64,000 nucleotides of DNA from NCBI GenBank assembly GCA_000004985.1, contig GG738925.1; one strand, 5' to 3'. Below the pieces are notes generated by a model. That model worked only from the letters and a program-made list of their open reading frames with translations. It did no database searches and was not told the origin of the DNA. Source of the DNA: Naegleria gruberi (Eukaryota). The translations under genes and the position numbers were made by a program. Positions 28,246-30,918 of the stretch are shown here, one piece after another (position 1 is the first letter of the stretch; each line of letters opens with the position of its first letter).

Positions 28246-30918
28246 TTATTGAAGAGTGGAGAGACGATCCAAAATTTCATCAAGTGTGATTCTGTCAGCA
28301 GTGTTTAATCTGAGCATTGAAATTACCAATTCAACGAGTCCTGTAGAGTATGGATAGTGTTGATTCTTGATAATGCTTGATCTGAGATGATTCATTACCT
28401 TTTCTTCATTACCATACTTCATAATGAGACCATTAATCATGGTGACAGTATCAAAAGTAAGGAGTTGGTAACACGTTACACCCAAAGCAAAAATGTCAGC
28501 AGAAGCAAACATGGCAGTATTTTCTTCCAATTCTTCAGAAATGTCCAAAAGTTCTGGTGGAATGAATTGAAGAGAACCAGCTTGTTGAATATCACTTGCA
28601 GAATCACTGACTGATTTGGATAAACGGAATCCAATTAAAACAGTGTCAATATTTTCAGAAGGATCCCATTCTCTCAGTAAAATATTATGTGGTTTGATGT
28701 TTCTGTGAACAATCTTGTGTTTGTTCATGTATTGGAGGGTACCAATGATTTGAGAAATAAACTTCTTAATGACTGCTTCTTTCAAAACAACTTTTTGTTT
28801 GATAAGGCTCTCAAGACTTCCCTTGTCGTAGTAATCCATTTCCACACAGAGCGTACTCTTGTTTGTAAGATCGTTTGAGTTTTGGTTATTCTCTGGAATT
28901 TTGCATTTCAAAACAGCAACATCTCTAACACCAATAATATGGTCTTGTCTTAATTTGATTAAATTCATGGCAGATTTGAGAGACTTGTTGAGAGCTTCGG
29001 TACTAAAGAAATCTACCAATTTTACAGCAATTACTGGAGGATCATCTTTTCCTCTATTAAATTTCTTTGCCTTGTATACATATCCGTTAGTTCCCTTGCC
29101 TAAAAGTTGCATCTTTCTATATCTTTCCTTCAAAATCATTTCCAAAGATTTTGGTTCTTCTGGATCAAAGTCATGTTCTCTATTCTCATCACCAACATAA
29201 TGAACCGCCATAGAATCAGAAGATGTAATTGGTGGTGAGCCTGCATCAAAGTTAGGAACTGGAATTGGAGAGTCTTCAGGAGGAGATGTTTCAGAAGAAA
29301 CTGGTGAAACTTGGGAAGGTTGTGGAATGCAATCTAGAACATCAACTGGAGTAGAAATCACAGTTGGAGAAGGAGTAAAGGTTGATTCAGTTACTCTAGG
29401 AACTGATGGAGAATGCGGTCTATTATTGATTGATGGAGGATATTGAGGAGGTAAAGTACTAGACACGCTATTATAGAGTGGTGGAGCAGTTGATTGCCCA
29501 AATGGTTGTGTTTGAAGGAAATAGTTTGGTGGTGGTGGTTGAATAGGTTGATAGGTTTGAGGTTGCGCATTTGAGAGTATTGGTTGATAGATAGATTGAG
29601 CTTGTTGGAATGTGTAAGAAGGAGGAGGTTGATTAAGAGTTGGTTGGTTAATAATCAAATTGCCTTGGTATGAAGGAGGTGAAACAATTTGAGGTTGAGG
29701 CACATTCCCATATACAAGTGCATTCAAATCAATTCCGTTATGTTTGACTCTTTCTTCGCAGGTCAATCCAAATTCATCTCTTATATACATATTTGCTCCA
29801 TTTTTGATTAATGTCTTGACAACATTCCAGTGTTTGCATTGAATAGCAACTTGAAGAGAATTCATGTTGCGATCCATAACTTTCAAATCAACTTGAGCTC
29901 CATGTTTTATCAACCATTCAACTGCCTCTGGATTGTTATGTTTAGATAATACATAGAGTGGTGTTTCACGTTCTTGATTCAAACAATCCACAATGAGAAT
30001 GTTATGTTTAAGATTCTTAGTAATAAGATAATTAGCTCTTTCAAAATTCCTTATACGGAGAGCATTAATAAATTTTTCAACTTGAGTAGCAATTACTTGA
30101 TTAACAATAATGTCCATGCTTGGATTTGTTGGAATGGTAACTGTTTTTGGCTTGGCACCCATTCTAATGAGATAGGAAGCAAATGGAATAAGATTTCTTT
30201 CCATACAATATTGTAAAATACTTCTTCCATAAATTATTCCATTAGTATTGCCTCCTCTTCTAATGAGGAATTTCAACATTTTCATATTTACAGAATCTAC
30301 AGCTACACCAAGAGCAGTCTAATTTCCGTTTTATCCATTATTGTAAATTAAAATTCATTTCAATCACCATTAAAATCTTCATATTAGAATTTTAAATACT
30401 TACGCACTAATCATCAATTAATTTATCAGTTAAATTATAAAGAAATATGAAAATTTACTTACTCCACTAGTATCACAATCATTTATTCCGGCTTCTCTGT
30501 TATTGATCATGGCTTCAACCATTTCATAATTTCCCTCCCGAACCATCTTTAAAAGCAAGCTAATCTTTCCATTGTTACCTTGTTGATAATTATTGTTAGC
30601 ACAATTACTAGTATTACTACTCGTATTCATACCACTCGAATTATTATTAATATTATTAATATTATTATTATAATTATTATTGCTACCCGGAAGAGAAGCT
30701 TGTCCAGATCCACCCGATCCCATCGCCATGCCCATCGAAGCAACCATAAAGGACGAAGATGACAATGGACTCGTTGTCGTAGTGGTTGTTGTTGTTAGTA
30801 GTGGTGAGGAGGGTTTTTCATCAGCACCTCCTCCTGCTAAATCATCTTGTTGTTTTCCACCATCATCATTGCTCGAACTGGAGAGTTTCATTTTTTGTCG
30901 TAGTGTTTGAAAGACCAT
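28246..30918 (-). CDS. ankyrin-repeat protein kinase-like protein (TKL-like), predicted pseudokinase; 2 exons
   Basis: Exon 1 (about 30463..30918) is a low-complexity poly-T/poly-N region plus a first ANK repeat (ISLLLKMVREGNYEMVEAMINNREAGINDCDTSG). It ends at a GTAAGT donor (about 30462). Intron of about 144 nt runs to ...ttAG at about 30319. Exon 2 (28246..30318) carries ANK repeats, a P/Q-rich linker and a kinase domain (GKGTNGYVYKA glycine loop, IAVK lysine). The catalytic loop is HRNIKPHN (HRD to HRN) and the DFG motif is replaced by GFR. Confidence 0.75.

Follow-up and report, generated by a model that had tools for sequence, protein, structure and literature searches.

We analysed a 64,000-nucleotide (nt) stretch of contig GG738925.1 (hereafter the window) from the assembly GCA_000004985.1 of Naegleria gruberi, a heterolobosean amoeboflagellate, in which a gene on the minus strand encodes a protein kinase homologue that retains just one of its four canonical catalytic residues, the beta3 Lys, with the alphaC Glu and the Asp of both HRD and DFG lost. 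The predicted protein is composed, in order, of a low-complexity N-terminus, approximately seven ankyrin-type hairpins, a disordered Pro/Gln linker of some 170 residues, and a C-terminal protein kinase domain. The reading we favour, with a probability of about three in four on the sequence evidence, is that the gene encodes a catalytically inactive kinase homologue (pseudokinase) acting as a scaffold or adaptor, and the protein is, if anything slightly more confidently, predicted to have no physiological kinase activity. Pseudokinases account for approximately a tenth of most kinomes.

The C-terminal domain is unambiguous in fold, with residues 552–836 matching the Pfam family Pkinase (PF00069) over model positions 1–259 of 263 at 109.9 bits (cut-off 31.7), compared with 64.8 bits for the PK_Tyr_Ser-Thr family. 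An AlphaFold2 model of the domain, based on a 34-sequence alignment, has a predicted local distance difference test score (pLDDT) of 88 and a predicted template modelling score (pTM) of 0.88, and a Foldseek search with this model returns protein kinases only, with a probability of 1.00. The matches in the PDB are to generic kinases (PhK, CDK12, ULK1, and CaMKII, with template modelling scores of about 0.6–0.7), and the kinase group is not assignable from them. The full-length Pkinase match and the kinase fold of the model together place the domain within the eukaryotic protein kinase fold.

A sequence-only reading of this gene had proposed that both catalytic aspartates are substituted (HRD to HRN, and DFG to GFR), and alignments with solved kinases and with related domains bear this out. 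The motif columns were assigned in a MAFFT alignment of 90 near-full-length domains taken from the best 150 matches of an exhaustive HMMER search. The HRD-Asp column is Asp in 79 of the 90 related domains and the DFG-Asp column in 81, with both nearly invariant in a family alignment of 34 sequences. In pairwise phmmer alignments with solved structures, VHRNIKPHN pairs with V-I-H-R-D-I-K-G-Q-N of TNIK, and LIGFRLS pairs with LVDFGVS of TNIK and other solved kinases. No alignment, whether to a hidden Markov model (HMM) or to a structure, puts an Asp-containing segment at either position. Additionally, all motifs quoted in that reading are present on the minus strand, with their coordinates checked by translation, and the glycine-rich loop and the Lys of IAVK that it described as kept were re-read at 29083–29100 and 29020–29022, respectively.

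A third loss, missed by the sequence-only reading, is observed at the alphaC position, where the Glu is replaced by Ser in N. gruberi, by Thr in Naegleria fowleri, and by Ala in a metagenomic orthologue, and the Lys-Glu salt bridge is therefore lost. By sequence, a kinase homologue counts as a pseudokinase once it lacks any one of three residues, namely the beta3 Lys and the Asp of HRD and of DFG, and two of these are absent here, which supports the earlier prediction of a pseudokinase, with the loss of the alphaC Glu strengthening it further.

The remodelled motifs are not peculiar to a single sequence, with HRN and GFR found to be identical in four independent sequences: the window, a database entry from N. 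gruberi (P0001), N. fowleri, and the metagenomic orthologue. The N. fowleri orthologue (FDP41_013621, 844 residues) shares 63% identity with the N. gruberi kinase domain, and the metagenomic orthologue (P0003, 590 residues, with its N-terminus shortened by the gene call) shares 58%, with both carrying HRNIKPxN and LIGFRLSKS. The N. fowleri gene is also syntenic, with a tetrahydrofolate (THF) dehydrogenase/cyclohydrolase gene upstream of it, on the same strand, as in N. gruberi. Across the kinase region the orthologues are 53–61% identical, and the glycine loop (G[KR]G[TS]NGYVYKA in the orthologues), AxK, HRNIKP-N, and GFRLSKS are strictly conserved. Since the independent P0001 and two orthologues share HRN and GFR, and none of these sequences restores HRD or DFG, sequencing error is ruled out as the source of the substitutions.

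Outside this orthologue group the catalytic residues are retained. The nearest non-orthologous relatives, from Naegleria lovaniensis and Willaertia magna, are 30–44% identical and keep the alphaC Glu, HRD, and DFG, and several of them (P0156, P0009, P0020, and P0008) are proteins combining ankyrin repeats with a kinase domain. As the orthologues share HRN and GFR while these relatives keep all three elements, the comparison indicates that the losses are old and private to one orthologue group, having occurred before N. gruberi and N. fowleri diverged; the survey of paralogues suggested by the earlier reading accordingly returned no sign of a family-wide change. The same retention of catalytic residues, including in the ankyrin-kinase proteins, suggests that the ancestor was probably an active ankyrin-repeat kinase.

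Motif decay is also seen independently in other members of the wider family, chiefly tandem-kinase proteins, with combinations such as HRG with GFR, HRS with GFG, YLN with NLR, and HCN with GFA (examples being found among P0130 domain 2, P0004 domain 3, and P0079), and G-F-R at the DFG position has more than one origin in this wider set. In Naegleria and Willaertia, the same C-terminal kinase domain is found joined to varied N-terminal modules, including ankyrin repeats, arrays of DUF4116 or TPR units, and NHL/EGF teneurin-like domains (P0014, P0022, P0015, P0027, P0156, and P0020), which suggests a lineage-specific expansion of a “repeat sensor plus kinase” design.

The pattern of substitution differs markedly between the parts of the protein. 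In codon alignments analysed by NG86 (synonymous saturation made YN00 unusable), the rate of nonsynonymous substitution (dN) in the kinase domain is 0.34–0.38 against a synonymous rate (dS) of at least 1.9, which is saturated, and in the ankyrin domain dN is 0.34–0.56 against a saturated or nearly saturated dS of 1.4–4.3, compared with a dN of about 0.9 and a dS of about 1.0–1.3 in the linker. Given how far dN falls below the saturated dS, both folded regions of the protein are, on these alignments, under purifying selection, with the linker close to neutral. Purifying selection on the kinase domain in turn argues that the domain is functional rather than decaying, and the open reading frame (ORF) is intact in all three organisms, the two features together being those of a functional gene. 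The notion that the gene is a decaying remnant, or that its substitutions arise from an error of sequencing or of gene modelling, takes some encouragement from the public N. gruberi model P0001, which lacks the glycine loop and in which an apparent 1-nt indel is bypassed by an intron. However, the window has an intact ORF that stays collinear with the two orthologues across the glycine loop, and with the shared HRN and GFR motifs and the low dN of both folded domains also opposing it, this explanation is effectively refuted.

Whilst the catalytic residues are lost, much of the nucleotide pocket is kept. The glycine loop and the beta3 Lys (K51) are retained together with K160 and N163 of the catalytic loop, E207 of the APE motif, D226 of alphaF, and R294 of alphaI. 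By comparison of the sequence with standard kinase spine positions, seven further residues are all in place: Val in beta2, Ala in AxK, the gatekeeper Met, the Leu after the catalytic Asn, His in HRN, Phe in GFR, and a Leu four residues past the alphaC position. Because the pocket motifs are strictly conserved in orthologues of 53–61% identity, the pocket appears to be still in use, and we place the odds that ATP binding is retained at about even. It is conceivable, though unlikely, that the protein is instead purely a protein scaffold with a disused pocket binding neither ATP nor metal, like pseudokinases of the VRK3 type. The loss of both the Lys-Glu bridge and the Mg ligand would be in keeping with such a protein, and many pseudokinases do not bind nucleotide (PMC4718504), however strict conservation of the glycine loop, AxK, the gatekeeper Met, the hinge, and the Lys and Asn of the catalytic loop would be unexpected if the pocket were unused, and the sequence contains no bulky substitutions that would fill it.

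The earlier estimate of six or more ankyrin repeats is fair, with one repeat at the end of exon 1 and six helix pairs in the AlphaFold2 model of the exon-2 product (residues 2–8/12–20, 34–40/44–52, 66–88/92–104, 120–126/130–138, 154–160/164–172, and 187–193/198–203; pLDDT about 80–93) giving approximately seven ankyrin-type hairpins. Only four or five of these are canonical, with one of the six pairs being atypical, with a long helix, and another a short C-terminal cap, and Pfam detects fewer repeats than the model shows. At a pTM of 0.44, the model of the exon-2 product gives no evidence that the ankyrin and kinase domains pack against each other in a fixed arrangement. The low-complexity poly-Thr/poly-Asn N-terminal exon described previously is likewise recovered, as a T8 run and an Asn-rich run in exon 1, and this region is unconserved in N. 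fowleri.

The linker shows little conservation outside a short, acidic stretch immediately before the kinase domain (Y-G-D-E-N-R..DF..EEPK), and contains five PPxY motifs, of the PY type that serves as a ligand for WW domains, compared with 0.35 expected from its composition; none of 20,000 shuffles reaches five. The N. fowleri protein also contains five, compared with 0.30 expected. By sequence, the excess of PPxY over composition in a disordered and accessible region is that of a PY-motif adaptor, and the motifs may recruit WW-domain proteins as predicted ligands, a suggestion we hold tentatively and at somewhat less than even odds.

From these observations we infer a scaffold or allosteric role, with phosphotransfer predicted to be lacking, and the following mechanism can be envisaged. 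The protein would have its origin in an active kinase with ankyrin repeats, from a family that has expanded in heteroloboseans. In the Naegleria lineage it would then have lost both the catalytic Asp (HRD to HRN) and the Asp that binds Mg (DFG to GFR), along with the alphaC Glu, and selection would since have maintained the ankyrin domain and a folded kinase domain with its remodelled motifs. Partner proteins would be bound by the ankyrin stack as well as by the pseudokinase domain, with the five PPxY motifs of the linker recruiting WW-domain proteins such as Nedd4-type ubiquitin ligases. The pocket, with its glycine loop, beta3 Lys, hinge, gatekeeper, spine, and catalytic-loop Lys and Asn, may bind ATP without a metal ion, with the Arg of GFR standing in for Mg2+ as a phosphate ligand, in the manner of Arg215 in the STRADalpha GLR motif. 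Such metal-free binding of ATP would hold the domain in an active-like state suited to partner binding, rather than to phosphotransfer.

Several points weigh against a catalytically inactive scaffold. With just three orthologues to compare and synonymous sites saturated, dN/dS is an upper-bound style of estimate, and the third, metagenomic orthologue carries only one PPxY motif. Furthermore, pseudokinases defined by sequence are sometimes weakly or unconventionally active. Both CASK, which is cation-independent, and the JH2 domain of JAK2 are listed as active with non-canonical motifs (PMC4718504). Some proteins first classed as pseudokinases thus proved active, and the protein kinase homologue HER3, which has HRN, keeps weak autophosphorylation. 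The protein might by analogy still be an enzyme, with low or unconventional kinase activity supported by other catalytic residues and metal-independent binding of ATP, and the conserved glycine loop, beta3 Lys, catalytic-loop Lys and Asn, and substrate-binding APE region would suit such an enzyme. We regard this as improbable, however, as the alphaC Glu, HRD Asp, and DFG Asp are lost together, as the known “active pseudokinases” mostly lack just one or two canonical residues, and as the orthologue alignment reveals no conserved acidic residue beside the motifs that could compensate.

The limits of 28246–30918 correspond exactly to the coding sequence from start ATG to stop codon. Exon 1 (30463–30918) is 456 nt long and exon 2 is 2,073 nt long, closing with the stop codon, and the N. 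fowleri orthologue likewise begins with MVF, which supports the ATG at 30918 (Table 1). The segment between the exons probably represents two introns around a 3-nt micro-exon, with the intron at the equivalent site in N. fowleri (L001, about 6408–6410) containing AAT between AG and GTGAGT; in a shuffle test, such a site arises by chance in one shuffled intron at a rate of approximately 0.004 per species. The residue encoded would be the “x” of the ankyrin G-x-T-A-L motif. The micro-exon is included in the public N. gruberi model and left out of the N. fowleri annotation, and the spliced product has 842 residues without it and 843 with it, the latter being probably the true length because the extra residue restores the G-x-T-A-L spacing. 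In the N. fowleri orthologue, a 174-nt intron is found in the kinase domain (L001, 8451–8624), about seven codons past GFRLSKS; it is absent from N. gruberi, and an intron has therefore been gained or lost between the species.

The top database match, P0001, is the N. gruberi “predicted protein” XP_002668518.1 (NAEGRDRAFT_76568, 736 residues), which is 100% identical to the query over residues 40–308. This public model begins at Met10, differs from the window at two residues (V/A and G/A), and contains an additional Cys between DTSG and TALG that is explained by the micro-exon TGC. It also has GFLLQ in place of 108 residues that include the glycine loop (window about 29090–29420, minus strand), which looks as though a spurious intron had been introduced during modelling to get round a 1-nt indel between the two sequences. 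In the window the ORF runs uninterrupted across this segment, collinear with that of either orthologue, and the window therefore provides the better gene model. The start at Met10 and the two residue differences indicate that the window derives from another assembly or allele. No mention of the NAEGRDRAFT_76568 identifiers was found in the literature searched, and a search of titles found none on the Naegleria kinome or on Naegleria pseudokinases.

Table 1. Features of the ankyrin-repeat pseudokinase gene, in window coordinates.
Feature	Position	Strand	Remarks
Whole gene	28246–30918	minus	start ATG at 30918, stop at 28246–28248
Low-complexity N-terminal region	30571–30918	minus	T8 run, Asn-rich run, Ser/Gly-rich
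First ankyrin-type repeat, end of exon 1	30463–30570	minus	GKISLLLKMVREGNYEMVEAMINNREAGINDCDTSG
Intron, GTAAGT...TTAG	30319–30462	minus	144 nt
Probable 3-nt micro-exon TGC (Cys)	30404–30406	minus	between AG and GTAAGT
Ankyrin-repeat domain in exon 2	29710–30318	minus	six helix pairs; Pfam Ank_2 2.4e-20
Disordered Pro/Gln/Ser-rich linker	29152–29709	minus	disordered stretch of about 185 residues in the AlphaFold2 model; pLDDT below 35
Five PPxY motifs (PY, WW-domain-ligand type)	29440–29679	minus	PPSY, PPSY, PPNY, PPLY, PPQY
Protein-kinase-fold domain, predicted pseudokinase	28267–29121	minus	Pfam Pkinase 1.9e-31
Glycine-rich loop GKGTNG	29083–29100	minus	kept
Beta3 (VAIK) Lys, Lys of IAVK (K51)	29020–29022	minus	kept; invariant in alignments
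AlphaC Glu position, Ser (Ser67)	28972–28974	minus	column Glu in 79 of 91 sequences including the query
HRN at the HRD position, within VHRNIKPHN	28699–28707	minus	catalytic base lost
GFR at the DFG position, within LIGFRLS	28624–28632	minus	Mg-binding Asp lost, Gly to Arg

Elsewhere in the window, the same heterolobosean family is represented by a further kinase gene (42001–44217, minus strand), which encodes two kinase-fold domains. The N-terminal domain is degenerate, with AHLNLTPNN for HRDxKxxN, DIG for DFG, and no glycine loop found, and the C-terminal domain is intact (HRDIKPQN and DFGLSK), a layout resembling the tandem pseudokinase-kinase arrangement of JAK proteins; many database relatives of this family carry 2–7 kinase domains. 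Two genes downstream of the pseudokinase gene lies an ORF with a MAC/perforin (MACPF) domain (25019–26503, minus strand; Pfam 2.8e-07). The sole RNA gene detected in the window by ARAGORN and Rfam is a tRNA-Gln (anticodon TTG; 37608–37680, minus strand), which is unrelated to the pseudokinase.

The analysis corrects the model of a previously unannotated and uncharacterised gene and gives a first hypothesis of its function. The gene is conserved between N. gruberi, which is free-living, and N. fowleri, a brain-eating pathogen. It represents an independent case of G-x-R in place of DFG, as known from STRADalpha, beside a PPxY-rich linker, and offers a small, testable case of dead kinases being recruited as adaptors far from animals.

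Scaffolds that join ankyrin repeats to a pseudokinase are already well known from ILK, RNase L, and the Giardia Neks, and the category is not new, however the protein described here is a member of none of these families, nor of the STRAD family. ILK, a metazoan scaffold, shares the arrangement of N-terminal ankyrin repeats followed by a C-terminal pseudokinase domain without a catalytic base, and both proteins have a basic residue at the third DFG position (the Lys of DVK in ILK, and the Arg of GFR here), which in ILK reaches the phosphates of ATP (PMC4718504). In contrast, ILK retains the Asp of DFG, and its glycine loop is degenerate and Asn-substituted, whereas here the Asp is lost and the glycine loop is canonical. 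ILK also lacks a long PPxY linker and belongs to the TKL group, whilst the present domain scores higher with the Ser/Thr Pkinase model than with PK_Tyr_Ser-Thr, and the resemblance is one of shared architecture only, with no orthology found. In RNase L, as in ILK, ankyrin repeats are paired with an ATP-binding pseudokinase domain (PMC4718504), and N-terminal repeats precede the pseudokinase scaffold as they do here, but RNase L carries an RNase domain, and none follows the kinase domain of the Naegleria protein, which ends 6 residues past the Pfam kinase match.

Among protists, the Nek-ankyrin proteins of Giardia form a lineage-specific expansion, consisting mostly of pseudokinases, in which the repeats affect localisation (PMC3218828). 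These also join a NEK-like kinase or pseudokinase to ankyrin repeats, and a search of solved structures with the family profile places NEK1 first (211 bits), although its lead over NEK2 (197), CDPK1 (195), MST3 (192), and ULK1 (184) is marginal. In the Giardia proteins, however, the kinase is N-terminal and is followed by TALM-type ankyrin arrays, the reverse of the order observed here, which sets the Naegleria protein apart from this group, and most relatives of the latter are catalytically intact.

The closest parallel for the motifs themselves is the metazoan STRADalpha, in which GLR replaces DFG and ATP is bound without a cation, with Arg215 substituting, and in which a locked, active-like conformation binds and allosterically activates LKB1 (PMC4718504). 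Both proteins have lost the catalytic Asp and have a Gly-hydrophobic-Arg sequence at the DFG position (GLR in STRADalpha, and GFR here), and the STE20-group kinases TNIK and MST3 are among the best sequence matches of the Naegleria domain. Unlike that domain, STRAD has no ankyrin repeats beside it, and the beta3 Lys is retained in the Naegleria protein, as is the Asn of the catalytic loop. ILK and STRAD are both absent from the best 60 solved-structure matches, which are led by STE, CAMK, NEK, and PKR kinases, and with active heterolobosean kinases of 30–44% identity as the nearest relatives, there is no evidence of orthology to STRAD despite the shared G-x-R and loss of the HRD Asp. A more specific and rather unlikely elaboration is that the protein forms a Naegleria-specific, independently arisen STRAD-like module, in which the Arg of GFR would support metal-free binding of ATP, a partner kinase of the same heterolobosean family would be activated or localised by the protein in its active-like state, and the PPxY linker would connect the complex to a WW-domain ubiquitin ligase. 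If true, this would represent a convergent arrival at the GLR solution of STRAD, combined with an ankyrin scaffold like that of ILK, in a lineage far removed from animals.

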